From assembly GCA_900770165.1 (NCBI GenBank), contig CAAGJJ010000037.1:3113-67112 (forward strand): DNA of 64,000 nt, given 5' to 3'. Origin of the DNA: Clostridia bacterium. Its GTDB lineage: Bacteria; Bacillota; Clostridia; Oscillospirales; Acutalibacteraceae. The position numbers and the translations under genes are program-made. A model generated the notes under the pieces. That model saw nothing but the letters and a program-made list of their open reading frames with translations. It did not search any database and was not told the origin of the DNA. Of this stretch, positions 3,025-32,070 are shown one piece after another. The number at the start of each line of letters is the position of its first letter. Position 1 is the stretch's first letter.

Positions 3025-3099
<75 letters not shown>

Positions 3100-3546: not shown

Positions 3547-5784
3547 ATGGCGAGTTTAATAAGAGATAGTATAAGAAATTTTTCAGCTGATAGTGTAACA
3601 AATAAGAAAACTATTAAGTTTGCATTGGCTGGAAACCCTAATTGTGGGAAAACCACGTTGTTTAATAAATTGACAGGAAGTAAACAGTATGTAGGAAATT
3701 GGCCTGGTGTAACTGTGGAAAAAAAGGAAGGTAGAGCTAAGTTTTATGGAAAAAATATTAGCATTTTAGACTTACCAGGGATATATTCATTATCTCCGTA
3801 TTCACCTGAAGAAGTAGTTACTAGAAATTGCATAATAGATGAGGATCTACAGCTGATTATTAATATTGTAGATGCAACAAACATAGAAAGAAATTTATAT
3901 CTTACAACGCAAATAGCAGAGCTTGGGAAGCCTATGGTAATTGCACTTAATATGATAGATCTACTTGAAAAAAGAGGAGATCGTATTGATTATAAAAGAT
4001 TAGAAAGAAAATTAGGAATTCCGGTTGTACCAATTTCTGCAGGTAAGGGTACTGGTATAGATGAATTAATGAAACTTGCTATTAGCTACGCAGAAAAGAA
4101 TCAAATTGTAAATATAAAAAATACATATTCTCCAGATGTTGATGAGGTATTATGCGAGATTGAGAAAGTTTTGGATTCTACAGGTAAAAGTACAAATGCT
4201 AACCAGAGATGGAATGCTGTTAAAGTTTTTGAAGGAGATAGAATAACATTAGAAAAATTTAAATTCACAGAAGCTCGATCTCAAAAAATAAATACTATAA
4301 AAAAGAAAATACCAACCACTAAATATTTAGATAGGGAAATGATAATTGCAGACCAAAGATATAAGTATATATGCAACATTTGCTCTTTAGTGGTGAAAAA
4401 AAGTTTTGGACAAGGACATTTGACAACATCCGATAAAGTAGATAAGATTATTACTAATAGGTTTTTGGCTATACCACTGTTTTTAAGTATGATGCTGCTA
4501 GTCTTCTTTATAACATTTGGACCTATTGGAAACTCTTTAAGGGATAGTGCAGAATTTTTAATAAAAGATGTTTTTGCAGGCATGATTAACAATATACTTA
4601 ATTCTGCAGGGGCTTCACAATGGACTGTAAGCCTAGTAATAGGTGGAATAATAGAAGGTGTTGGTTCTGTTATATCATTTTTCCCACAAATATTAATTTT
4701 GTTCACACTGTTATCAATATTGGAAGACAGTGGCTATATGGCAAGGGCTGCTTTTATAATGGACCAATTATTAAGAAAGATAGGTTTATCGGGTAGAGCA
4801 TTTGTTCCAATGCTAATGGGGTTTGGCTGTACGGTACCAGCAGTTTTAGGAACCAGGACTTTAGAGAGCGAGAAAGACAAAAGATTGACTATTTTAATTA
4901 CACCATTTATGTCTTGTAGCGCAAAGATGCCTGTGTATGCTCTGTTTATTTCAGCTTTTTTTGTTAGTAACCAGGCACTGATAATTTTTTCTATATATTT
5001 GTTAGGAATTATTATAGCAGTTTTATCAGCTTTGCTGTTTAAAAATACGTTATTAAAAGGGGAGCCTGCTCCATTTGTTATGGAACTCCCACCATATAGG
5101 CTACCAACGCCAAGAAGCTTGTGGATACATGTTTGGGAAAGACTTAAAGATTTTTTAACAAAAGCAGGAACTGTATTACTTGCAGCTACAATTGTTATTT
5201 GGTTTTTACAATCATTTGATTTTAAAATGAGAATGGTAGATGATAGTGCAAATAGTATGCTTGCAAGTATTGGAACATTTATAGCTCCAGCATTTACTTT
5301 GTGTGGCTTTGGAGATTGGAGAGCCTCTGTCTCACTAGTAACTGGACTTGTTGCAAAAGAGTCTGTTGTTAGTACAATGGCGATTTTATATAATTCTGGT
5401 GTAGATGCGAACTTGGCTTCAACTTTAGGACAAACGTTTACTCCATTAAGTGCATATTCGTTTATGGTTTTTGTTTTGCTGTATACTCCATGTGTTGCAG
5501 CTTTATCGGCAATACATAAAGAGATGGCCAGTTTAAAATGGACCTCTATAACAATATTGTATCAGCTAGCTGTTGCGTTTTTAGTATCGGCATTTGTATA
5601 TCAAACAGGTTCTTTTATGTCATACATTTTTTCCGGAGGCAGTGTTAAGATTATAGATGTAATTATAGCGATTTTATCTATCTCAATTGTTGCTTGTGTT
5701 ATTTGGATAGAGGTAGGAAAAAGGAAAGATAGTAAAAATATGTGCAGCTCTTGTTCAGGGTGTGCAAATAAATGTAATAGATGA
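3547..5784 (+). CDS. feoB: Ferrous iron transporter B; the tabulated GTG start at 3538 is probably replaced by the ATG at 3547
   Basis: N-terminal G-domain (GNPNCGKTTLFN), polytopic permease, Cys-rich C-tail CSSCSGCANKCNR; RBS aggagg 7 nt before the ATG at 3547. Confidence 0.9.
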   Translation: MASLIRDSIRNFSADSVTNKKTIKFALAGNPNCGKTTLFNKLTGSKQYVGNWPGVTVEKKEGRAKFYGKNISILDLPGIYSLSPYSPEEVVTRNCIIDEDLQLIINIVDATNIERNLYLTTQIAELGKPMVIALNMIDLLEKRGDRIDYKRLERKLGIPVVPISAGKGTGIDELMKLAISYAEKNQIVNIKNTYSPDVDEVLCEIEKVLDSTGKSTNANQRWNAVKVFEGDRITLEKFKFTEARSQKINTIKKKIPTTKYLDREMIIADQRYKYICNICSLVVKKSFGQGHLTTSDKVDKIITNRFLAIPLFLSMMLLVFFITFGPIGNSLRDSAEFLIKDVFAGMINNILNSAGASQWTVSLVIGGIIEGVGSVISFFPQILILFTLLSILEDSGYMARAAFIMDQLLRKIGLSGRAFVPMLMGFGCTVPAVLGTRTLESEKDKRLTILITPFMSCSAKMPVYALFISAFFVSNQALIIFSIYLLGIIIAVLSALLFKNTLLKGEPAPFVMELPPYRLPTPRSLWIHVWERLKDFLTKAGTVLLAATIVIWFLQSFDFKMRMVDDSANSMLASIGTFIAPAFTLCGFGDWRASVSLVTGLVAKESVVSTMAILYNSGVDANLASTLGQTFTPLSAYSFMVFVLLYTPCVAALSAIHKEMASLKWTSITILYQLAVAFLVSAFVYQTGSFMSYIFSGGSVKIIDVIIAILSISIVACVIWIEVGKRKDSKNMCSSCSGCANKCNR

Positions 5785-5809
5785 AGTATTTTAGGAGATA
5801 GGTTGTGAT

Positions 5810-6199
5810 TTGTTGGAAAATAAACTCACGGGTTCACTAGAAGACTATTTAGAGGCAATTTATATGCTTGAAAAAAGCAATGAAAGAGTAAGAATAACAG
5901 ATATAGCAGTTAAACTTAAGCTTTCAAAACCTAGTGCTAATAAAGCTATAAATTTACTAAAAAATTCAGAATTAGTGAATCATGAAAAGTATGGCAATAT
6001 AGTTCTTACTGAAAAAGGAAGAACTATAGCAAAAGAAATTTACTATATGCATGAAACATTGAAAAAATTTTTGATTAATGAATTAGAAATAGATCCAGAA
6101 GTTGCTGAGCATGAGGCATGTGGCATAGAGCATGTAATAAGTAAGGATTCTTTAAATAAACTTGTTATGTATTCTAAGCGAAAAAATAAAAGTAATTAG
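5810..6199 (+). CDS. DtxR/MntR-family metal-dependent transcriptional repressor
   Basis: N-terminal wHTH (LEDYLEAIYML...ITDIAVKLKLSKPSANKAINLL) and a metal-binding/dimerisation region; last gene of the feo operon. Confidence 0.8.
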   Translation: MLENKLTGSLEDYLEAIYMLEKSNERVRITDIAVKLKLSKPSANKAINLLKNSELVNHEKYGNIVLTEKGRTIAKEIYYMHETLKKFLINELEIDPEVAEHEACGIEHVISKDSLNKLVMYSKRKNKSN

Positions 6200-6220
6200 C
6201 GCTTATGCTATATTATTTGG

Positions 6221-6249
6221 TTGACATTTCTAATACATTGTTATATAAT
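6221..6249 (+). promoter_or_regulatory. Consensus sigma-A promoter (ttgaca-17-tataat) upstream of alaS
   Basis: Perfect -35 and -10 hexamers separated by 17 nt. Confidence 0.6.
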
Positions 6250-6314
6250 TTTTGTGTTAATGTAGACTTATTATTTGCATTTTATGTGCAAATAATTTGA
6301 AATTCGGTAAACTG

Positions 6315-6362
6315 TAGATTCTTCCGTCCGTCGTATGGACGACGGTAGAATCTTTATTTTTG
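6315..6362 (+). terminator. Intrinsic terminator-like hairpin in the alaS leader; also the candidate terminator of the feo operon
   Basis: Two-segment stem: agattct pairing with agaatct (written 5' to 3' on the same strand; that arm's reverse complement is agattct), and ccgtcgt pairing with acgacgg, followed by ttatttttg. The element ends about 22 nt before the alaS ATG. Confidence 0.6.
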
Positions 6363-6383
6363 TTTATAGATGGAAGTGTTTTT

Positions 6384-9020
6384 ATGGAATGGACAGGGCT
6401 AAATGAGTTAAGAGAAAAATATCTCAATTTTTTTGAATCTAAAGGCCATTTAAAACTAAAAAGTTTTTCGCTAATACCTAATAATGATAATAGTCTTTTA
6501 CTTATCAATTCTGGTATGGCACCTATGAAAAAATATTTTACTGGAGAAGTGGTTCCGCCGCAGAAAAGAGTTACTACTTGTCAAAAATGTATTAGAACAC
6601 CAGATATTGAAAGAGTAGGTATTACAGATAGACATGGCACTTTTTTTGAAATGCTTGGCAACTTTTCATTTGGTGATTACTTTAAAAAAGATGCTATAGC
6701 ATGGTGCTGGGAATTTTGTGTTGATGTTTTAAAAATGCCTATAGATAGATTATGGATTTCAATTTATGAAGATGACGATGAAACATTTGACATATGGACT
6801 AAAGATATAGGTGTAGATCCATCTCATATTGTTAGACTTGGTAAAGAAGATAATTTCTGGGAACATGGATCAGGACCGTGTGGACCTTGTTCGGAAATAT
6901 ACTTCGATAGAGGCAAGGAATATGGATGTTCTAATGAAAACTGTTCTGTTGGCTGTGAATGCGATAGATATATTGAATTTTGGAATCTAGTTTTTACTCA
7001 GTTTAGTAATGATGGAAATGGAAATTATACACCATTACAGCATCCTAATATAGATACAGGTATGGGACTAGAAAGACTTGCATGTATTATGCAGGGAGTA
7101 GATAATTTATTTTTGGTGGATACAGTAAAAGCTATTATAGATAAGGTCTGCAAAATTGCAGGTGTTAAATATGGTGAAAATAAAAAGCTGGATGTGTCTA
7201 TAAGAGTTATAACAGACCATATTAGAAGTACTACATTTATGATTGGCGATGGTATTATGCCATCGAATGAAGGAAGAGGTTATGTACTTAGACGTTTGTT
7301 AAGACGTGCAGCAAGACATGGAAAACTTTTAGGAATAAAAGGTACATTTTTAACAGATATTTGCGATACAGTCATAAAAGAAAATGAAAAATCTTACCCT
7401 GAGCTTACAGAAAAAAAAGAGATAATAAAAAAGGTAATTGGTGTTGAGGAAGAAGCCTTCTTTAAAACGCTAGATCAAGGTATGCAGATTTTGACGAATA
7501 TAATTGATAATGCAGATTTTGATGTACTTTCTGGTGAAGATGCATTTAAGCTAAATGATACATTCGGATTTCCTCTTGATTTAACAAAGGAAATAATAGC
7601 AGAAAAAGGCATGACCGTAGATGAAGAGAAATTTAAAATTTTGTTATCACAACAAAAAGAGAGAGCTAGGAATGCTAGAAAAAAGTCCGATACAGATGCT
7701 TGGATAAGTAACAATATAGATTTTAACAATATCTTACCCACTGAGTTTTATGGGTATAATGATTTATCTATTAATGCTGAAGTTAAAGCGATAGTTAAGA
7801 ATGGTAAAATAGTGGAATATGCTTCAGAAGGAGATAAAGTAATAGTTGTTCTCGATAAAACACCTTTTTATGCAGAAAGCGGAGGACAAGTAGGAGATAG
7901 TGGGGAAATAGAAAGCTCTAATGTCAATGTAAGTGTAATAGATACCATAAAAAATTCTTCTGAAATTTATATGCATAGCTGTATTGTGAATACAGGCATA
8001 ATATCTTGTGGAGATACAATAAGAGCAAATGTTGACATTTTAAAAAGGCAAGCTATTATGAGAAATCATACAGCAGCTCATATGCTCCAGGCAGCACTTA
8101 GAGAAGTTTTAGGTACACACGTAGAGCAAGCGGGACAATTAGTAAATGATAAGCATTTAAGATTTGACTTTACTCATTTTTCAGCTATGACAGCTGAGCA
8201 AATAGAAAAAGTTGAAAATATTGTTAACAGTGCTATATTGAGTTCTAAAAGTGTAGTTGTTAAAGAAATGCCAATAGTAGAAGCACAAAAGTTAGGGGCT
8301 ATGGCTCTTTTTGGTGAAAAATATGGTGATGTAGTTAGAGTTGTAAATATAAAGGACTTTTCAATTGAATTTTGTGCAGGTACACATGTTGATAATACTT
8401 CTAAACTTGGCTTGTTTAAAATAATATCAGAAGGCTCAGTGGCTTCTGGAATAAGGAGAATAGAGGCAGTAACTGGTGAGGGTGTACTTAATGTAGTTAA
8501 TTCTTCTTTAACAACAATACGTAATTGTGCAGAAATACTAAAAATAAAAAATCCTAATGATATTTTAAATAGATGTATATCTATTAATAATGAATTAAAA
8601 GAAAAAGATAAAAAAATAGAGGTTCTTACATCTAAACTTTCTTCTATGAAAGTAGATGGAATGTTAGAGGTTTCTAAAATAATAGAGGGAGTTAGGATTG
8701 TAACTGCAAATTTTCTAGATGAGGAAATGCATTCTGACGATTTGAGAAAATTATGCAATAAATTAAAAGACAAAGGACCTAAATGTGTTGCAGTTATAGT
8801 ATCTAAAAATAAAGGAAAGATTACATTTGCTGTTTCAGTTGGTAAAGAAGCAATTTTCAAGGGCTTAAATGCAGGCAAAATTATTAAAGAAGTTGCTGAA
8901 ATAGCAGGAGGAAAAGGCGGAGGTAAACCAGACTTTGCCATGGCTGGGGCTAAAGATGAGGCAAAAATATCTGAAGCTTTAGACTCTGTTCAAAATATAG
9001 TTCTTAATATGTTAAAATAA
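6384..9020 (+). CDS. alaS: Alanine--tRNA ligase; start taken at the internal Met MEWTGLNEL
   Basis: Class II aaRS motifs, the HxxxH editing motif (HTAAHMLQ), and the C-terminal DHHA1-like CAGTHV region. Confidence 0.92.
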   Translation: MEWTGLNELREKYLNFFESKGHLKLKSFSLIPNNDNSLLLINSGMAPMKKYFTGEVVPPQKRVTTCQKCIRTPDIERVGITDRHGTFFEMLGNFSFGDYFKKDAIAWCWEFCVDVLKMPIDRLWISIYEDDDETFDIWTKDIGVDPSHIVRLGKEDNFWEHGSGPCGPCSEIYFDRGKEYGCSNENCSVGCECDRYIEFWNLVFTQFSNDGNGNYTPLQHPNIDTGMGLERLACIMQGVDNLFLVDTVKAIIDKVCKIAGVKYGENKKLDVSIRVITDHIRSTTFMIGDGIMPSNEGRGYVLRRLLRRAARHGKLLGIKGTFLTDICDTVIKENEKSYPELTEKKEIIKKVIGVEEEAFFKTLDQGMQILTNIIDNADFDVLSGEDAFKLNDTFGFPLDLTKEIIAEKGMTVDEEKFKILLSQQKERARNARKKSDTDAWISNNIDFNNILPTEFYGYNDLSINAEVKAIVKNGKIVEYASEGDKVIVVLDKTPFYAESGGQVGDSGEIESSNVNVSVIDTIKNSSEIYMHSCIVNTGIISCGDTIRANVDILKRQAIMRNHTAAHMLQAALREVLGTHVEQAGQLVNDKHLRFDFTHFSAMTAEQIEKVENIVNSAILSSKSVVVKEMPIVEAQKLGAMALFGEKYGDVVRVVNIKDFSIEFCAGTHVDNTSKLGLFKIISEGSVASGIRRIEAVTGEGVLNVVNSSLTTIRNCAEILKIKNPNDILNRCISINNELKEKDKKIEVLTSKLSSMKVDGMLEVSKIIEGVRIVTANFLDEEMHSDDLRKLCNKLKDKGPKCVAVIVSKNKGKITFAVSVGKEAIFKGLNAGKIIKEVAEIAGGKGGGKPDFAMAGAKDEAKISEALDSVQNIVLNMLK

Positions 9021-9042
9021 CATTTAAAAACTGGAGGAAAAT

Positions 9043-9381
9043 ATGGATTGTATTTTTTGTAAGATTATTAACTCTCAAATACCTTGTAACAAAGTTTATG
9101 AGGATGATAAAGTGTTGGCATTTTATGATTTAGAGCCACAAGCGCCAAAACATGTTTTGGTAATTCCCAAAGAACATATATCTTCCTTAAATGATGTGAA
9201 TTCTGAAAATAGCTCCATAATTTCACATATTTTTGAAGTGATAAAAATAATTGCAGAAAAGTTGGAACTTTCAAATGGTTATAGGGTTGTAACGAACTGT
9301 GGTGAAGATGGAGGACAAACGGTTGGGCATATTCATTTTCATGTTTTAGGAGGAAGATCTATGGAGTGGCCTCCAGGTTGA
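9043..9381 (+). CDS. HIT-family (histidine triad) nucleotide hydrolase
   Basis: Histidine-triad motif HIHFHVLGG; 112 aa. Confidence 0.85.
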   Translation: MDCIFCKIINSQIPCNKVYEDDKVLAFYDLEPQAPKHVLVIPKEHISSLNDVNSENSSIISHIFEVIKIIAEKLELSNGYRVVTNCGEDGGQTVGHIHFHVLGGRSMEWPPG

Positions 9382-9414
9382 TAATTATATTTTATTTTTG
9401 TAAATAAAGCATAT

Positions 9415-9975
9415 GTGAAAGGTAGTGTTAAAAAAATGAGTGAGGTTTATAATATTAATGTTGCAGGATGTGAGAGGGATCTACCAATATGTAATGCAGG
9501 GGAACATTTAGATATAGCAGCATTTATTATGTTTGGCGATGTTGAGTTAACAGTTAAAGCTGCAGAGGCAATATTGAAAAAATGTCCTGAATATGATGTG
9601 CTTATTACAGCGGAAGCAAAGGGTATTCCGCTATGTTATGAAATGGCAAGGCAGTCAGGAAAGAAATATATAGTTGCAAGAAAAAGCGAAAAACTTTATA
9701 TGAGAAATCCTATTCATGTTGAAGTTAAATCTATAACTACAGTTAGGCTTCAAAATTTATATCTTTCTCAAGAGGATTATGAATATTTAAAAGATAAAAA
9801 GGTTTTAATTGTTGATGATGTAATAAGTACAGGTGAATCGCTTACAGCTATTGAAACATTGGTTAAAAAAGCCGGAGGTAATATTGTAGGTAAAACTTGT
9901 GTTTTAGCCGAAGGCGATGCTGCAAAGAGAGATGATATTATTTTCTTAGAACCTCTTCCTTTATTCAAAAAATAA
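9415..9975 (+). CDS. Type I phosphoribosyltransferase-family protein (xanthine/adenine PRT-like)
   Basis: PRPP-binding motif VLIVDDVISTGESL; domain order resembles Xpt. Confidence 0.6.
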   Translation: MKGSVKKMSEVYNINVAGCERDLPICNAGEHLDIAAFIMFGDVELTVKAAEAILKKCPEYDVLITAEAKGIPLCYEMARQSGKKYIVARKSEKLYMRNPIHVEVKSITTVRLQNLYLSQEDYEYLKDKKVLIVDDVISTGESLTAIETLVKKAGGNIVGKTCVLAEGDAAKRDDIIFLEPLPLFKK

Positions 9976-10033
9976 TATAAAAATATATCTTACTAAAATG
10001 ATGCTGTAATTTTGCAGGAAAAGGAGAATTTAT

Positions 10034-12274
10034 ATGGTGAGGTCTTTTGCGTTAATTGGATTTTCTTATTTAATTGCGCTTATGGCCTCTGTATATTTTG
10101 GGGCAACGGTGGCTATCAAACTGTCGATAGTTTTCCTTTGCCTTTTTATAATTTCATTATTTTTTAGAAAATGCAGAAGCAAAAAAGTTATTCCAATTGT
10201 ACTTATAACGATGTCAATTGCATTTATAAATTATGGCATTTCTTATATTTATAAAGTTGTACCTATTGAGAAACTTGATAAGACTACAGTAAACATTTCT
10301 GGTGTAATTTGCGATACACCTTATAAATCTTATAATAAATATTATTACATATTAAAAACTGATAGCGTTGGGTTAGATGGTGCTCCGCAAAATATTAAGA
10401 TAAGAGTTTCATCAAATACATCATTAGATGCAGATATATATGACAAAGTTACAGCACAAGTAAATATGTTTTTACCAAATGATAATAATGGATTTTCATC
10501 TAAAGCGTATTATGCATCTAAAAATATTCATATGTTTGCATATTTTAATAATTATGAGTCTGTTAAAATAGATGAAAATAGTAATAAATCTATAAACTAT
10601 TATATACTTAAGTTTAGATCAGAATTAATATCGAGAATTAAAATATTATTAGGCCAAGAAGAATCATCAATAGCAATAGGGATGCTGTTAGGTTATAAAT
10701 TTGATATTAATAGCGATGTAAAGACAGATTTTAATCGTGTGGGTATATCCCATTTATTAGCAGTGTCAGGCTATCATATGGCCGTTATAGTTAGTTTTAT
10801 GTTTACGCTATTTGGTTTTCTGAAGTGCCCTAAAAAACTTTCGAATGTGTTAACTATATTTGTAGTTATATTATTTATGGCATTAACAGGTTTTTCTTCA
10901 TCAATCGTAAGATCTGGTATAATGTATATTGTATATTTATTTGGAAGTATTATAAGCCGAAGAACAGATTCTTTAAATTCGCTTGGCCTGGCAACGTTTT
11001 TAATTTGTGTACTAAATCCATTTTCAGCAGGAGATATAGGACTTTTGTTATCTGTTTCTGCAACGCTTGGAATAATTATATTATCTCCGATAATTTCATT
11101 ATGGTTCAAAAATAAAATAACTAATGTAACGTTTGGGAAAAGTTATTTGTATTTAATTATTGATATCCTGGCAGTTACTTTATCTGCAAATTTATTTACT
11201 ATGCCAATAACTATGTTATCTTTTAAATATTTTTATATAATATCTCCGTTAGCAAATATTTTAATTATATTTGCATTTTCTGCAATGATGTTTTGCTTAA
11301 TAATAGCTATTGTCTTGTCTTATTTAGGATTTTTAAGTATAATGGCTATACCATTTTCAATTGCATCAACACTGTTGATAAAATATGTGGTTACTTGTGC
11401 TAAGGTCCTTGCAGATTTACCATATGCTTATTTATCAGCAAATTATAAATTTTTACTGTTGTGGTTAGCGGGTACTTTTCTATTATTAGCAGTGGCAATT
11501 TTTCTTAGAAAAGATTTGAAATTAATTAAGATTACAGCTATCCTTTCTGTAATGATATTAATGATTGGTACTTTGTCATATCAAATTCTAAAAAGGAACA
11601 TTACAACTGTTGCAATTCTTAATACAGGCACAGGAATTTCAGCAGTAGCTTCTAAAAATGGACATGCAGCAGTGATATCATGTGGTGGGGAGGATTTCTA
11701 TTCTGATAGTATTTATGAGTATTTAGAATCTAGAAATATAAAGAAATTAGACTTCGTTTTAGCGTCAGATGATAATTCTAAAACATCTGGGTTTATTGAA
11801 AATATTATTAATAAGTATAATCCTGCATCTGTTGTAGTTCATGATAAAGTTTTAGATGATAATAAAGAGCTATTTAAAAGCAAACTGAATTCTAGAAATA
11901 ATTTAATAACTTTTGAGACTTCTGCTGATGTTGACATTTGGAATAATATTAGTATTTCTGCTATTAACGAAAGTAGTGAAAGCTTTATATATTTAACTGT
12001 TAATGATGTCAAATTTCTATTTTGTCCATCTGGAGGAGATGCATATAATTTGCCAATTGATTGGAAAACACCGGCATTTGCTATTTATGGAAATATTCCA
12101 GATAATGATAATATGATTAAATCAAATTATATTATATTAACAATGAGCAAAGATGATTTGAAGGGAAAAACAAAGCCTGTAGTTGTTAACAATAAAAATG
12201 TTTTTACTACATCAATGAATGATATGATTTTAATAGATTGCATAGGAAATAATGAAATAAGTATACATAGATAA
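10034..12274 (+). CDS. comEC: DNA internalisation competence protein ComEC/Rec2, with a degenerate C-terminal MBL motif
   Basis: Competence-domain signature LLAVSGYHMAVIVSF in a polytopic membrane protein. The C-terminal lactamase-like domain has LASDDNSKTSG where HxHxDH is expected. Confidence 0.85.
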   Translation: MVRSFALIGFSYLIALMASVYFGATVAIKLSIVFLCLFIISLFFRKCRSKKVIPIVLITMSIAFINYGISYIYKVVPIEKLDKTTVNISGVICDTPYKSYNKYYYILKTDSVGLDGAPQNIKIRVSSNTSLDADIYDKVTAQVNMFLPNDNNGFSSKAYYASKNIHMFAYFNNYESVKIDENSNKSINYYILKFRSELISRIKILLGQEESSIAIGMLLGYKFDINSDVKTDFNRVGISHLLAVSGYHMAVIVSFMFTLFGFLKCPKKLSNVLTIFVVILFMALTGFSSSIVRSGIMYIVYLFGSIISRRTDSLNSLGLATFLICVLNPFSAGDIGLLLSVSATLGIIILSPIISLWFKNKITNVTFGKSYLYLIIDILAVTLSANLFTMPITMLSFKYFYIISPLANILIIFAFSAMMFCLIIAIVLSYLGFLSIMAIPFSIASTLLIKYVVTCAKVLADLPYAYLSANYKFLLLWLAGTFLLLAVAIFLRKDLKLIKITAILSVMILMIGTLSYQILKRNITTVAILNTGTGISAVASKNGHAAVISCGGEDFYSDSIYEYLESRNIKKLDFVLASDDNSKTSGFIENIINKYNPASVVVHDKVLDDNKELFKSKLNSRNNLITFETSADVDIWNNISISAINESSESFIYLTVNDVKFLFCPSGGDAYNLPIDWKTPAFAIYGNIPDNDNMIKSNYIILTMSKDDLKGKTKPVVVNNKNVFTTSMNDMILIDCIGNNEISIHR

Positions 12275-27437: not shown

Positions 27438-27627
27438 GGATATTAAAGGAGAAAGCTTTTAAGTATTTATACTAAAAATCTATATTTTGAAATACCTAAG
27501 GTAATATTGAATAAATCTCTTTTTGTGGAATGTTTGGTTATTTTGTCAATAGAAAGAAATTGATATTCTTTTTATACTTATAGTAACGAGATATTTTCAC
27601 ATGATTTTTAGAAAGGAAATATTTTAA

Positions 27628-28422
27628 ATGATTAAAAACAAAGTAAAAAAACTAACAAGTATTTGTCTAGCAGTTATTTTATTGTCAAGCGTATCTTTAA
27701 ATGCATATGCTGGAGGTTCGGTATCTATGGTAAATAATATTGTAGTTATTAAAAATGATAAAAATAACATAAAAGAAAATGCATTTAGAGGATGTAAAAA
27801 CTTAGAACAAGTAATAATTGAAGATGGAATAACAAAGATTAATGACGGTGCATTTAGAGATTGCATAAATTTAACTTCTATTACTATTCCAAACAGCGTA
27901 ACAGAGATTGGTACAAGTGCATTTGAAAGTTGCACGAGTTTAACTGATGTATCTATTGGTAACGGTGTAAAAGAGATTGGTGTATCTGCATTTAATGGTT
28001 GCAAAAGATTAACATCTATAACTATCCCAAGTAGTATAACAAAGATTAATGGATGGGCATTTCAAGGTTGCACGAGTTTAACTGATGTAGCTATTGATAA
28101 TGGTGTAGAAGAGATTGGTTCATCTGCATTTAATGGTTGTAAGAGATTAACATCTATAACTATCCCAGGTAGTGTGACAAAGATTAATGACTATGCGTTT
28201 TATAAATGCAGTAATTTGAGATCAGTTACTTATTTGGGTGTAAGTGATCCTGGTAAAGCAACTTATTATAAAGGAATATTAAGGGTAAATAAAAATATAT
28301 TTGATTATACTGAATATAATGCTGGCTCCCATTTTTTAAAGCGTAGCTATGAACCGGTTAAAGTACCTAGTGGTTATAGCGATGACTTATTTTGTGGAAG
28401 AAAGACAATTCCTATGGAATAA
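27628..28422 (+). CDS. Secreted BspA-type leucine-rich-repeat protein
   Basis: Signal peptide MIKNKVKKLTSICLAVILLSSVSLNAYA; repeated AFxGCxxLTSITIPxSVTxIGxxAF units typical of the LRR_5 family. Confidence 0.8.
   Translation: MIKNKVKKLTSICLAVILLSSVSLNAYAGGSVSMVNNIVVIKNDKNNIKENAFRGCKNLEQVIIEDGITKINDGAFRDCINLTSITIPNSVTEIGTSAFESCTSLTDVSIGNGVKEIGVSAFNGCKRLTSITIPSSITKINGWAFQGCTSLTDVAIDNGVEEIGSSAFNGCKRLTSITIPGSVTKINDYAFYKCSNLRSVTYLGVSDPGKATYYKGILRVNKNIFDYTEYNAGSHFLKRSYEPVKVPSGYSDDLFCGRKTIPME
27850..28210 (+). repeat. Near-identical 138-bp tandem repeats inside the LRR gene
   Basis: Copies starting at 27931 and 28069, and at 27987 and 28125, are more than 90% identical at the nucleotide level. Confidence 0.8.
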
Positions 28423-28553
28423 ATTACGCAAAAAACAAAATAGAAAAATGATTTAGATAATGATTTTTAAGATTATATGCAAAAGTTCAGTTGAATTTAA
28501 GTCTGTTTATTATATTAGTAGCATAGTTTAATTAGTATTTTTATGGATAAATA

Positions 28554-30773
28554 ATGTACGAAAGGTTGGACTTTATGTATGCTAGTAAGATAAAAAAAGA
28601 AAAAATTTTTTCTAAGGCTAAAAAAGGAGAAGTTTTCCCTCATATTAAAATAGAAAAAGATTTTTCTAAGGCTATAGATGAGGGTTATAATCCTGTAGAG
28701 GAAAAACTTAATGCTAATGCTAAGTGCTATACGTTTGATGATATGTACTCAATAGAAAAAGTATTAGACAGCTATTTTACTGGAAAAGAGAAAAAAATGT
28801 CTCAATATGAGGCAGTGAAATTATACAGGATACTTATGTTTGTCTATTATGGTATAAAAAGTATAGCACTATCATATAAAAAAAATGAGCCAAAAAATAT
28901 TACACCTGATAATCGTATTTTTTTCAAATATATTGCAAATGGAAAATACAGATATATTAAGAATAAATTAGCATACTTTTACACTGAATTATTGCCAAAT
29001 TTAGAAGTAGAAAGTGAGAGTCCGTTCAAAGATAACTTGAAAATAACAGAAAAAACTGAAAAAAAAATTAAAGAAAAGTATGATGCGTATAATGAAGAAG
29101 AAAGTAAAGTATCAGCTAATTTGAAAGAAAAAGATATAAAAAAATATGCTAAAACTATAAAAAAGATGCTTTCAACAACATTTATGCCAAAGTACAGTGT
29201 TAACAAAGTTATAGATAAAGAAAAAATTAAAGATTACGAATTAATTTATGACAAAGAATTTTATAGAAAACTCGAAAAAGAAAATATTGGCAAATATATA
29301 AACAACCCAATATTTATGAATCTTTTATCATCTGAAGAACGAATAAAATTGATTAGAACCTATAAAGTAATATTAAAAAGAAATGGAAAATCAAATATAA
29401 ATGAAGATCCAAAATATAAAATACAATTACCAAAACAAGAGGATAATGAAACCAATCTGCCAGAGGCAACCGAACAACAAGAAAATAATGAAACAAATCC
29501 GCCAGAAGCAATTACGTTTGACCCTGATTATAAAAATAAAAAGAACGTAACTTATATAAAGTCTGGCGTAATAAAGAATTCAGATGGCAATTTTACTTTA
29601 CACAAGATAGGAAAACCAACAACAGAAGGTGATAAGCCAGAAGACAAACCAGTTTTTGAGGCTCATAGTGCGTCAAATGGTACAGGTGCTAAAGCAGAAA
29701 TAACGCATTGTTTTATACGTTTTAGAGCAACAGAATACGATCCAGATGAAGCATCAAGTTCTAGCTCAGATAAAAAATCAAAGCATAATCCATATAAGAG
29801 AAAGGTATATTCATTAGGTTTTTATCCTGCGCATTATTATGGATATGAAAGCAGTTCTGAGATTAAAGAGACAGATCTTTTTAAGAGGCTTACTAATAAG
29901 GTAATGGGTGGCCAGCCTTCTGTAAGAGGATTAATAATGGATGATAGCGAACACTATTCTCAAATAGCCATTACAAGGAAGTGTGATAATAAAAAAATTT
30001 CAAAATTAGATGAATGTATACATAATTTTGCGGATAAAGAACATTACAATTTGGCGTTAAATAACTGTACAGCATTTGTTTCGAAGATTTCTAAAGATAT
30101 TGGATATAGAGATATTTCTGGCTTGTTTAAAAATTTTGTATTGTATTCTCCTAATTTAGCAGCTGGAAAATTAGTAGATGCTATGATGTCAGGCAAATAT
30201 ACAAAAGATAAAGATACAAGTTTCAAAACTGAGGATTTTGTGAATAAATTATATGATGGTTATAATAATGAATCCAAAGAAAGACTATTAGCCGCACAAG
30301 GTGAGGATTTTTTTTCTAAGAAAAGTTCACATGGCATCTTATATGAAATGATGCATCAAGAACTTGGTTACACTTCATCAGATACAGATATAGAAAAGAA
30401 GGATGTAGCAGGGTTAGATGAAAAAGCTTACAAGGCATTTTGTGACACTTATAAAATTTATATAGAGCCTTTTTATGGACTTAGCAAATCATCTCAGAAA
30501 GATAAATACGAAATTTTAAGATTTTTTGTTGTAGCTGCAAGCAATTTTAGACTTTTAAAACAAAACAAAAATAATTTTGAAAATCTACCTAAGGATGCAA
30601 AGAGGAAAGCAGTAGAAAAGAAACGTAAAAAATATTTTGAAAGTTTAAGTAGTACACAAAAAGCAATGGAAAGGTTAAGGAAAATTGCTTTGAAACACAA
30701 GAACATACGTGCTTTCTTAATGACTAACTGTTTTGTAGATAGAATTGTTGCTGAAAAGGAAAAAACAATTTAG
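28554..30773 (+). CDS. Large Lys-rich hypothetical protein with a putative permuted papain-like His...Cys domain
   Basis: 739 aa, no signal peptide or TM helices. An internal EDNETNLPEA / ENNETNPPEA repeat. The central region (HCFIRF ... YNLALNNCTAFVSKISKDIGY) resembles the PPPDE/DeSI (peptidase C97) or LRAT-like His/Cys arrangement. Confidence 0.55.
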   Translation: MYERLDFMYASKIKKEKIFSKAKKGEVFPHIKIEKDFSKAIDEGYNPVEEKLNANAKCYTFDDMYSIEKVLDSYFTGKEKKMSQYEAVKLYRILMFVYYGIKSIALSYKKNEPKNITPDNRIFFKYIANGKYRYIKNKLAYFYTELLPNLEVESESPFKDNLKITEKTEKKIKEKYDAYNEEESKVSANLKEKDIKKYAKTIKKMLSTTFMPKYSVNKVIDKEKIKDYELIYDKEFYRKLEKENIGKYINNPIFMNLLSSEERIKLIRTYKVILKRNGKSNINEDPKYKIQLPKQEDNETNLPEATEQQENNETNPPEAITFDPDYKNKKNVTYIKSGVIKNSDGNFTLHKIGKPTTEGDKPEDKPVFEAHSASNGTGAKAEITHCFIRFRATEYDPDEASSSSSDKKSKHNPYKRKVYSLGFYPAHYYGYESSSEIKETDLFKRLTNKVMGGQPSVRGLIMDDSEHYSQIAITRKCDNKKISKLDECIHNFADKEHYNLALNNCTAFVSKISKDIGYRDISGLFKNFVLYSPNLAAGKLVDAMMSGKYTKDKDTSFKTEDFVNKLYDGYNNESKERLLAAQGEDFFSKKSSHGILYEMMHQELGYTSSDTDIEKKDVAGLDEKAYKAFCDTYKIYIEPFYGLSKSSQKDKYEILRFFVVAASNFRLLKQNKNNFENLPKDAKRKAVEKKRKKYFESLSSTQKAMERLRKIALKHKNIRAFLMTNCFVDRIVAEKEKTI

Positions 30774-31294
30774 ACATGAAAAGTTCAGACAAATAGTTCA
30801 AATTCATAGTTAACCAAAAGAATATAAAGTATATTCGATTTCTAAAAAGCGATGCACTAATTTGGTAATGCTAAATAACATTGAAAAATAAATTGTATAA
30901 AATTTATAATGCTATAAATGCAAATTTGAGATTCATTAGATGTTTACTCATTGTGTCTACAGAAAAAATTAGTATTATATTTATAATATAAAAATGCAAT
31001 TAATAGTATAAGAGAGTTAATTCATGTGTAATTGAAAGAAAATCAAAGAGATTAAAATTATCAAAGCTCGTACATATGAAAATGATGCATTAGAGAAGTT
31101 AAAGAAAGAATACAAAAAGCCTACGTATTAAATTCAAACAAGAATGTTTTTTAAATTTTCAATTAAGCATCGGTGAGGGTGTTGGGTTATTAGGAAATAT
31201 CAATCTTTTATTTATAGGTGTGCAACTTATTATCAATCGAGGTGTAAACGTTGATGTATTTATGCAACCGATAGGGGTAGATTAATTACTAGAA

Positions 31295-31335: not shown

Positions 31336-32070
31336 TGGCTATGTGATTATAGGAAAATGAAATTATAAATGTATATTTAAAAATTGGATTAATTTTATTA
31401 AGCTTAGCTTCATTTGTGTGTGATCTAATAAAAAGGATACAAAACAATATAAGACAAAATACGAATTAATATATAGAACAATAGAAACTTATCTAATCTT
31501 TTATTACTGATTGGTATAATAGTAGATTTAATTAAATAATAATTTGAAATAAATTTGTATAATGGATATTATAGGTATAATTACTCTTCATGTTTGCAAT
31601 ATACTTAGGAGTAATGGATTAGTGAATACAATAATTGAGCAATTGTTGTTGTAATTTTTAGAATAGAAAGTCAAGTATAAAGATTTGAAATTATATCTAT
31701 TTTCTTTATACAATAAATATCCCCACGCACAGCATGGGGACATTTATTTATATTATATTTTAACTGAAAAGTGCGATAGTGATATTTTAAAGGCACGCAA
31801 ATTTAAAGTATAAATTTAGAAATAAACACTTCTGGGAGGAAGAATATTACGTTAGTGCAGTATGATTAAATACTGCAACAATACAAAAATATATTAGGGA
31901 GCAAGAAAAAGAAGATAGGATTATAGACAAATTTAAAACTAAGGAATACGTAAACTATTTTAAGAGTGGCAAATAATCAGTCCTCTTAGGCTTGAACATA
32001 GTGAAAGTAAGCACGCCTTGAGATGGTTGGCACTCTCATACCATTTATAGAGCTTTTCATACCGTGTCTT

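Follow-up and report, generated by a model that had tools for sequence, protein, structure and literature searches.

The window analysed here is a 64,000-nt stretch of DNA from a Clostridia bacterium of the Acutalibacteraceae (GenBank assembly GCA_900770165.1, contig CAAGJJ010000037.1, positions 3,113 to 67,112), and the subject of this analysis is one gene within it, which encodes a lysine-rich protein of 739 residues at 28554 to 30773 on the forward strand. The conserved centre of this protein very probably represents a new and highly divergent member of the superfamily of permuted papain-like cysteine enzymes, with His385 and Cys505 as the predicted catalytic pair.

The open reading frame (ORF) of 739 codons, which an initial annotation had reported as lysine-rich from the raw sequence, is indeed present, and the encoded protein contains 15.6% Lys and 6.7% Tyr. 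Its true start is most likely the second ATG, at 28575, giving a product of 732 residues, because the relatives begin there (all open with MYAxKVKKEK, which corresponds to the second Met of the window ORF), because they carry ATA at the position of the first ATG (28554), and because a GAAAGG ribosome-binding site lies 8-9 nt 5′ of 28575. Despite this probable shorter start, residue numbers follow the 739-residue ORF throughout. The protein was also said to have neither a signal peptide nor transmembrane helices, and this stands: no signal peptide is apparent at the N-terminus, as judged by inspection only, and no transmembrane-like segment is found, the maximum Kyte-Doolittle value being 1.18 over 19 residues. 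The gene is made up as follows.

28575 to 30773, + strand: probable coding sequence of 732 residues (the initially annotated ORF begins 21 nt earlier, at 28554).
28575 to 29433, + strand: N-terminal helical region, residues 8 to about 293, variable among relatives, with insertions and deletions.
29059 to 29067, + strand: poly(A)9 tract within the gene; an A8 allele yields ORFs of 189 and 550 residues.
29434 to 29511, + strand: acidic, Pro-containing linker with a 36-nt tandem duplication, modelled as disordered, with a predicted local distance difference test score (pLDDT) below 30.
29487 to 30248, + strand: conserved core domain, residues about 312-565, predicted to be a circularly permuted papain-like (NlpC/P60-clan) Cys-His domain.
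29706 to 29708, + strand: codon of His385, predicted to act as general base; the residue begins a β strand and is next to the invariant Cys386.
30066 to 30068, + strand: codon of Cys505, the predicted nucleophile, first residue of a helix and inside the motif YNLxxNNCTAF.
30249 to 30770, + strand: C-terminal helical region, residues 566-739, with pLDDT of 80-91 for residues 650-710; fast evolving.

The N-terminal helical region resembles only generic helical bundles. The repeat noticed earlier in the linker, EDNETNLPEA/ENNETNPPEA, is encoded by the 36-nt tandem copies at 29434-29469 and 29476-29511, which are 86% identical; the unit is present once only in three relatives (P0004-P0006).

The protein belongs to a very small family, still without a name, that comes from gut clostridia. 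Neither the whole protein nor any of its three parts has a significant match in Pfam, NCBIfam, PADLOC, or PHROGs, and none of these profile searches places it confidently in an unrelated family. Sequence matches in the PDB to a Bep effector (E=0.075) and to designed repeat proteins were rejected as spurious. A word-indexed search of 5.8 billion sequences returned six relatives, all metagenomic, with 65-100% identity. When 1.84 billion cluster representatives were searched exhaustively by HMMER, using the core profile, only four true clusters were recovered, all unnamed and nearly all metagenomic; these comprise the protein's own family, P0007 and P0008 (about 47% core identity), and P0009 (30% identity, E=7.5e-6). 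The sixth HMMER match, P0010, was discarded as a repetitive translation artefact. No relative was found among 185,579 GTDB species representatives in two scans or in the IMG/VR viral contigs in one scan, and no source puts a name on any family member. Thus, the description of the protein as an orphan holds with respect to named families, none of which matches, but a handful of unnamed relatives does exist.

Between the branches of the family, detectable homology is limited to the core, extending over residues about 312-589 in the comparison with P0007 and about 359-543 in that with P0009. In a seven-sequence alignment (A3) that reaches down to 30% identity, the residues invariant in all seven sequences are E369, H371, H385-C386-F387, K415-R416-K417, G422, D464, H467, Y498, N504-C505, and F508. 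H385 lies within the motif AEITHCFIRF (encoded at 29694-29723), and C505 lies within YNLALNNCTAFVS (encoded at 30045-30083), the Cys motif taking the form NC[TN][AD]F across the alignment. Both residues are likewise kept in a paralogue at the locus L010. The His and Cys motifs singled out in the initial annotation are therefore present and invariant, but the spacing it gave, about 110 residues, is wrong; H385 and C505 are 120 residues apart. The two motifs exceed chance: H385, C505, N504, Y498, and F508 are invariant even though identity within the family falls as low as 30%. A second invariant set of His, Cys, and Asp residues consists of H371 (29664-29666), C386 (29709-29711), D464 (29943-29945), and H467 (29952-29954). 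By strand register, H371 and C386 should share one face of the predicted sheet, opposite H385, and the four residues may provide a third catalytic residue or a metal site.

Evidence for the fold comes from profiles and from structure prediction. When each of seven family members was scanned against Pfam (24,736 models), sub-threshold matches were obtained to RTE1/TMEM222 (PF05608) in six members (best E=2.9e-4), to Peptidase_C97/PPPDE (PF05903) in two (best E=4.2e-4), and to LRAT (PF04970) in two (best E=0.012). All of these weak matches fall on the helix and the Cys motif. A 2023 classification unites RTE1, C97, and LRAT in a single cluster of NlpC/P60-like papain-fold enzymes, whose circularly permuted members it gives as C97, C92, and LRAT (PMC10318531). 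With the family profile, hhalign aligned C505 with Cys108 of DeSI-1 (P=0.0012, probability 19.5%, 30 columns) and with Cys113 of PLAAT3 (P=0.0075, probability 5%, 19 columns), the two reference sequences having been checked against the PDB. AlphaFold2, run on the core alone with the seven-sequence alignment and no templates, gave a predicted template modelling (pTM) score of 0.65 and a mean pLDDT of 63. The order of elements in this model is β48-55, β64-76, β95-106, β139-144, β149-157, α160-175, and α186-197 (core numbering). H385 is at the start of the second strand (β64-76), and C505 is the first residue of α186-197; that is, strands come first and are followed by a Cys-capped helix. The features that define the superfamily are thus seen in the model, which has an α+β core, a Cys at a helix N-terminus, and a His strand before the Cys helix, and both residues are conserved across homologues. 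In the structure-level comparison, the values were 8.7 for TseH (6v98), 7.6 for YiiX (2if6), 6.6 for DeSI-1 (2wp7), 6.5 for Aichivirus 2A (7zv6), 6.1 for a C92 peptidase (3kw0), 5.8 for CLN5 (6r99), 5.6 for NDUEG7 (8iuf_E7), 4.5 for PLAAT4 (7zot), and 4.3 for RID (5xn7). The earlier proposal of a permuted papain-like His...Cys core resembling PPPDE/C97 or LRAT/NlpC proteins is borne out by the invariant dyad, the weak Pfam matches, the hhalign alignments, and the order of elements in the model, and a circularly permuted papain-like fold for the core is strongly favoured.

Several results weigh against this assignment. No family member attains any Pfam gathering threshold, and hhalign gives low probabilities (19% and 5%) over short alignments (19-30 columns). 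A Foldseek search of the PDB, a check proposed together with the initial annotation, returned no significant match (best E=0.47). At the sequence level, the PDB was searched with the protein, with the family profile, and with P0009, and no significant match and no papain-like chain was obtained. In the full-length AlphaFold2 run, the core has a pLDDT below 50, which makes it unusable for a test of the fold; the model of the core alone is of moderate confidence only, with a pLDDT of about 58-62 at both catalytic residues and three of the five models below 46. The proximity of His385 and Cys505 is an assumption of the assignment. A third catalytic residue is not evident on the strand that follows the His strand, which is its site in TseH and LRAT. 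Finally, the ratio of nonsynonymous to synonymous substitution rates (dN/dS, by the Nei-Gojobori method) is 0.30-0.86 in the core, and this high value, together with decay of the gene in some strains (discussed later), suggests that the window copy may be under relaxed selection.

The nearest known families are PPPDE at the level of motifs and TseH and C92 at the level of structure. As in the PPPDE/DeSI proteins (MEROPS C97, PF05903; DeSI-1 structures 2WP7 and 3EBQ), the predicted catalytic His lies ahead of the predicted catalytic Cys. In both, the Cys begins a helix and is part of Y-x-L-x(3)-N-C-x(2)-F, and the helix before it has a similar length; YNLALNNCTAF of the window protein aligns with YNLFEHNCNTF of DeSI-1. 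The hhalign match at Cys108 of DeSI-1 extends into the G-x-x-I segment past the helix, and P0009 matches PF05903 weakly (E=4.2e-4 to 1.3e-3). Even this best member reaches only 19.0 bits, short of the gathering score of 29.2 bits, and the window protein has no match at E≤10. The PPPDE signature reads Y-x-L-x(3)-N-C-N-x-F at the Cys and has, further upstream, a strand with H-[ST]-[GA] and then one with aromatic-x-aromatic-G. For this upstream part, a pairing of THCFIRF...YSLGFYP with WHTSIVV...EFFFGS of DeSI-1 was made by eye and was not recovered by hhalign. Unlike PPPDE/DeSI proteins, the window family has large insertions between the core strands, an extra conserved N-terminal β sub-domain (residues about 320-365), and the extra invariant residues H371, C386, KRK415-417, D464, and H467, and the core of the window protein is flanked by helical stretches of 300 and 170 residues. 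In addition, the definition of PPPDE was based on eukaryotes and double-stranded RNA viruses (family full name, PDB 3EBQ), while the window family comes from bacteria.

TseH, a type VI secretion system (T6SS) effector of Vibrio cholerae (6V98), and the C92/YiiX-YaeF proteins (PF05708; 2IF6, 3KW0) share with the window protein the permuted His-then-Cys order; the triad of TseH is a permuted Glu81-His64-Cys172 (PMC11160734). TseH-like domains of Legionella effectors such as SidG are, like the window core, embedded in a larger helical protein (PMC11696984). However, sequence identity to TseH and C92 is about 10%, no family member matched PF05708 in the Pfam scans, and an acidic or His third residue is absent at the TseH-equivalent position on the next strand, as judged from the alignment and strand register only. 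Unlike TseH, the window protein also lacks a T6SS, an immunity gene, and a secretion signal, and its host is Gram-positive.

The likeness to LRAT/PLAAT and picornavirus 2A H-box/NC proteins (PF04970; 4DOT, 7ZOT, 7ZV6) consists of the NC motif, the Cys at a helix N-terminus, the upstream His, and the hhalign pairing of C505 with Cys113 of PLAAT3. Against a gathering score of 24.3 bits, the highest score in the family is 15.2 bits (E=0.012-0.026), and the window protein has no match. In alignment A3, there is no second His at +12 from H385, as there would be in an H-box; this position is Pro397, preceded by an invariant D396 at +11. The window motif reads NCTAF rather than the NCEHF of LRAT, and the window protein has no C-terminal membrane anchor and no hydrophobic segment anywhere. 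RTE1/TMEM222 is the commonest weak Pfam match (profile positions about 88-133), with members scoring 11-18 bits (at most 17.8) as compared to a gathering score of 29.4 bits. However, this match is limited to the Cys-motif half of the profile, and RTE1/TMEM222 proteins are eukaryotic and transmembrane, whereas the window protein has no transmembrane segment. Because the curated thresholds of PF05903, PF04970, and PF05608 are not reached, the protein appears to represent a new family rather than a member of C97, LRAT, or RTE1; nor would it be a member of C92.

Together, these results and the genomic history described below point to a soluble, Lys-rich protein whose core would be a very divergent permuted papain-fold (NlpC/P60-clan) thiol enzyme, encoded on a module derived from mobile DNA. 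We place the probability of this reading at roughly 0.6. In the catalysis that we infer, Cys505 would cap the N-terminus of the central helix and serve as the nucleophile, and His385, on the preceding β strand, would activate it as a base. An acyl-thioester intermediate would form on the enzyme and then be resolved either by hydrolysis, so that an amide or ester bond is cleaved, or by transfer of the acyl or peptidyl group. E369, H371, D396, D464, and H467 are candidates for the third catalytic residue, and the variable helical flanks presumably serve in targeting or binding. What the data show is the family, its pattern of conservation, the likeness at the level of the fold, and the genomic history; catalysis, substrate class, and biological role are inferred. 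The range of reactions open to such a fold is illustrated by its known relatives. DeSI is an isopeptidase, C92/YiiX a lipid amidase, and RID a lysine fatty-acyltransferase, and LRAT/PLAAT, CLN5, and Lnb/LnsA are phospholipid acyl-hydrolases or acyl-transferases (PMC10318531, PMC11160734, PMC11696984).

If the assignment holds, a previously unrecognised and extremely rare family is added to the permuted papain/NlpC-P60 superfamily, one with an unusual architecture: the helical flanks are large, the insertions are long, and there are additional invariant His, Cys, and Asp residues. The superfamily has yielded unexpected chemistries, such as synthesis of bis(monoacylglycero)phosphate (CLN5), N-acylation of lipoproteins (Lnb/LnsA), and fatty-acylation of lysine (RID). 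Since these chemistries keep surprising, a branch on mobile DNA in human-gut clostridia is a reasonable place to seek a new activity. It would also follow that motif-level reading of raw sequence can flag a fold missed by every standard profile library. The practical weight is modest, as the distribution of the family is tiny and the gene is dispensable and eroding in the species.

The gene is set in a small island on the chromosome, with the following features around it.

27628 to 28422, + strand: gene for a BspA-type secreted protein with leucine-rich repeats (LRR_5, E=1.5e-60) and a signal-peptide-like N-terminus.
28440 to 28574, + strand: conserved 5′ region (the gene's own promoter/leader), which travels with the gene in mobile-element loci.
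30774 to 30994, + strand: conserved 3′ tail of the shared module, 87% conserved with L001-L003.
31766 to 31976, + strand: decayed 3′ fragment of an IS200/IS605 tnpA gene, with in-frame stops.

The chromosomal order is phosphotransferase system genes and a hybrid-cluster protein gene, the LRR gene, the gene for the 739-residue protein, a 1.3-kb gap, and a P-type ATPase gene, and then SpoIVB and Spo0A. An identical 739-residue protein is encoded in this same setting on about 20 metagenomic contigs from independent samples. No empty site, free of the island, came to light; all contigs that share the identical flanking ATPase have it. The secreted LRR protein reported upstream is present as described. 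The surroundings had been called an island of decayed genes, which is correct for the 1.3 kb 3′ of the gene, where there is no ORF longer than 51 residues and where the decayed tnpA lies, but the LRR gene and the gene for the 739-residue protein are both intact.

DNA homology with three loci that carry relatives, L001-L003, is limited to 28440-30994, that is, the gene, its 5′ region, and a 220-nt tail, and by blastn it begins at 28440-28497 regardless of which gene lies upstream. Within the tail is a near-consensus σ70-type promoter-like site, TTGAAA-18-TATAAT (30881-30910). In L001-L003, this site precedes a four-gene membrane-protein cassette that encodes a signal-peptide protein, a polytopic HExxH M48-like protease, and two multi-transmembrane proteins. 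The cassette is absent from the window, and the promoter-like site is orphaned. Relatives at 65-76% identity adjoin serine recombinases; one of these has ParA and RelB nearby, and another has prophage genes (a CI-like repressor, ERF, and a single-stranded DNA-binding protein). The gene with its own 5′ region is a self-contained module that elsewhere lies beside serine recombinases on a prophage-adjacent or plasmid-like element. Because homology ends at the limits of 28440-30994, the cassette is gone, and an IS200/IS605 fragment lies nearby, the island in the window is taken to be the chromosomal remnant of a mobile element. The L001-L003 cassette was considered as an obligatory partner or immunity determinant and rejected, since neither the window nor the loci of P0007, P0008, and P0009 contain it.

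LRR_5 genes occur beside relatives as well, with two copies in L001 and a fragment in L002. The window segments on either side of the LRR gene, 27459-27599 and 28486-28713, are contiguous in L002 (1044-1180 and 1188-1414). Because its flanks adjoin there, the LRR_5 gene of 264 codons behaves as an inserted or deleted cassette. In another strain (locus L021), the hybrid-cluster protein gene and the LRR gene are separated by the insertion of an intact Y1 transposase of 150 residues (952-1404). A sequence of about 45-58 nt in the gap (31660-31717) recurs twice in L001 (5-59 and 6894-6937) with 83-89% identity and could represent a terminator or some small repeated element.

Selection on the gene may be relaxed, and some alleles are broken. 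The dN/dS ratio is 0.47-1.4 in the C-terminal region; it is 0.3-0.6 for the window gene versus the mobile copies and up to 1.4 among the mobile copies themselves. Two loci, L009 and L026, carry only the A8 allele of the poly(A)9 tract and are otherwise 99.95-100% identical to the window. A8 is found on two different haplotype backgrounds, and its presence on the second suggests that the slip probably happened more than once. The tract could mark a hot spot for slippage, or else an on/off polymorphism that resembles phase variation. A second sub-lineage (L021, L022, L024, L025, L027, and L028, from at least 6 samples) combines A8 with a 1-nt deletion near 29380 and with linked single-nucleotide polymorphisms (SNPs) at 28982, 29372, 29401, 29603, and 29628; L027 has further C>A changes. 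ORFs called in this sub-lineage are of 189+92+289 residues and similar, and its allele is a true multi-lesion pseudogene. Frameshifted and multi-lesion alleles occur in at least 8 samples. Because other strains hold such alleles, the gene is dispensable in the species.

Against this background, it can be asked whether the window gene is a non-functional relic, its ORF open by chance and without fitness value, with only the copies on mobile elements being functional. The loss of the accompanying cassette and recombinase, the orphaned promoter, and the nearby IS200 remnant are what such a relic would leave, and the dN/dS values, the A8-only alleles, and the two frameshifts with linked SNPs of the second sub-lineage agree with it. 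However, the identical protein is found on about 20 contigs of independent samples, a 2.2-kb frame has stayed intact in DNA of 29% GC, where stops arise easily, and the 5′ region and ribosome-binding site are conserved, so that a relic is a possibility to keep in mind but an unlikely one. It concerns fitness in one species, moreover, and does not conflict with the biochemical assignment. Opposed to a permuted papain-like thiol enzyme is the reading that the likeness is spurious, with a chance YxLxxNC..F resemblance and an unreliable AlphaFold2 model, and that the core has a new fold or is non-enzymatic; H371, H385, C386, D464, H467, and C505, for example, could bind metal or be structural. The absence of significant PDB, Pfam, and Foldseek matches, hhalign probabilities of at most 19.5%, a mean pLDDT of 63 with three of five models poor, and the presence of more invariant His and Cys residues than a simple dyad needs, the HC pair among them, would all fit. 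Set against them is the recurrence of three independent Pfam families of the same cluster as weak matches among the 24,736 models, and the placement of an invariant Cys at a helix N-cap and an invariant His at a strand start, which is the papain catalytic arrangement; a spurious likeness is accordingly thought improbable.

If the core is a permuted papain-fold enzyme, its substrate could in principle be peptidoglycan, as NlpC/P60 enzymes are classically peptidoglycan hydrolases (PMC3482391; PMC11696984) and relatives of the gene adjoin prophage and recombinase genes. The protein would then be an NlpC/P60-type endopeptidase or amidase, either a TseH-like antibacterial toxin or a lysis or remodelling enzyme released with the mobile element. 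However, it has no signal peptide or transmembrane segment and no SH3b, LysM, or CW_binding domain; the gene is not part of a lysis or tail module, and the scan of IMG/VR viral contigs found no member of the family. In the window there is neither an immunity-like partner nor a downstream ORF longer than 51 residues, the host is a Gram-positive spore-former (Spo0A, SpoIVB, and a CwlD-like Amidase_3 are encoded nearby) with no T6SS or type VII secretion system (T7SS) within 8 kb, and the chemistry of TseH itself has been called enigmatic (PMC11696984). In its motif, moreover, the protein resembles the PPPDE/LRAT/RTE1 branch, whose targets are isopeptide or lipid bonds, and a peptidoglycan hydrolase is very unlikely. 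Much of the same evidence bears on the toxin- or effector-like architecture suggested in the initial annotation, which has no specific support: there is no LXG, WXG, or other trafficking domain, no signal peptide, no T6SS or T7SS gene called within 8 kb, no PADLOC hit, and no conserved small downstream ORF in the window that could encode an immunity-like partner. The predicted catalytic domain is central, not C-terminal, and the neighbours are housekeeping and sporulation genes. A T7SS/LXG toxin in particular was rejected, there being no LXG or WXG match and no apparatus genes nearby. The mobility, fast evolution, and on/off alleles are compatible with a role in conflict or contingency. A far bolder version, to which we give little credence, makes the protein the founder of a bacterial PPPDE/DeSI-like family on serine-recombinase elements of human-gut clostridia. 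It would be a conflict or host-interaction effector, acting for example as an isopeptidase on ubiquitin-like or lysine-linked modifications or as a lysine or lipid acyl-transferase, released non-classically, perhaps by lysis or in spores, and its expression in the population would be switched by slippage at the poly(A)9 tract.

Elsewhere in the family, no genomic context is common to all branches. P0007 and P0008 are flanked by bofA and rpsU in the genome of a different clostridium, and a tandem paralogue is present at one of these loci. A sporulation-specific (σK-type) promoter was considered and rejected, the window having CATAgttTA upstream of the gene versus TATAGT in the relatives, with the C not conserved; bofA, spoIVB, spo0A, and cwlD-like genes nearby are unremarkable in a spore-former. 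P0009, of 511 residues, closes an operon that also encodes a protein of more than 1,000 residues, two AAA (PF00004) ATPases, and several unannotated proteins (L004 1-13405; also L005-L007), and a STAS/anti-sigma kinase/PP2C partner-switching module follows this operon. In L010, tandem paralogues of 791 residues (5494-7869) and 804 residues (8001-10415), both with THCFF...NCT[AS]F, lie between bofA and rpsU in a clostridial genome different from that of the window, and the syntenic L008 locus has a single copy. In the 64-kb window itself, the only RNA gene found by Rfam and ARAGORN is a tRNA-Gly(CCC) gene at 3025-3099 on the minus strand.

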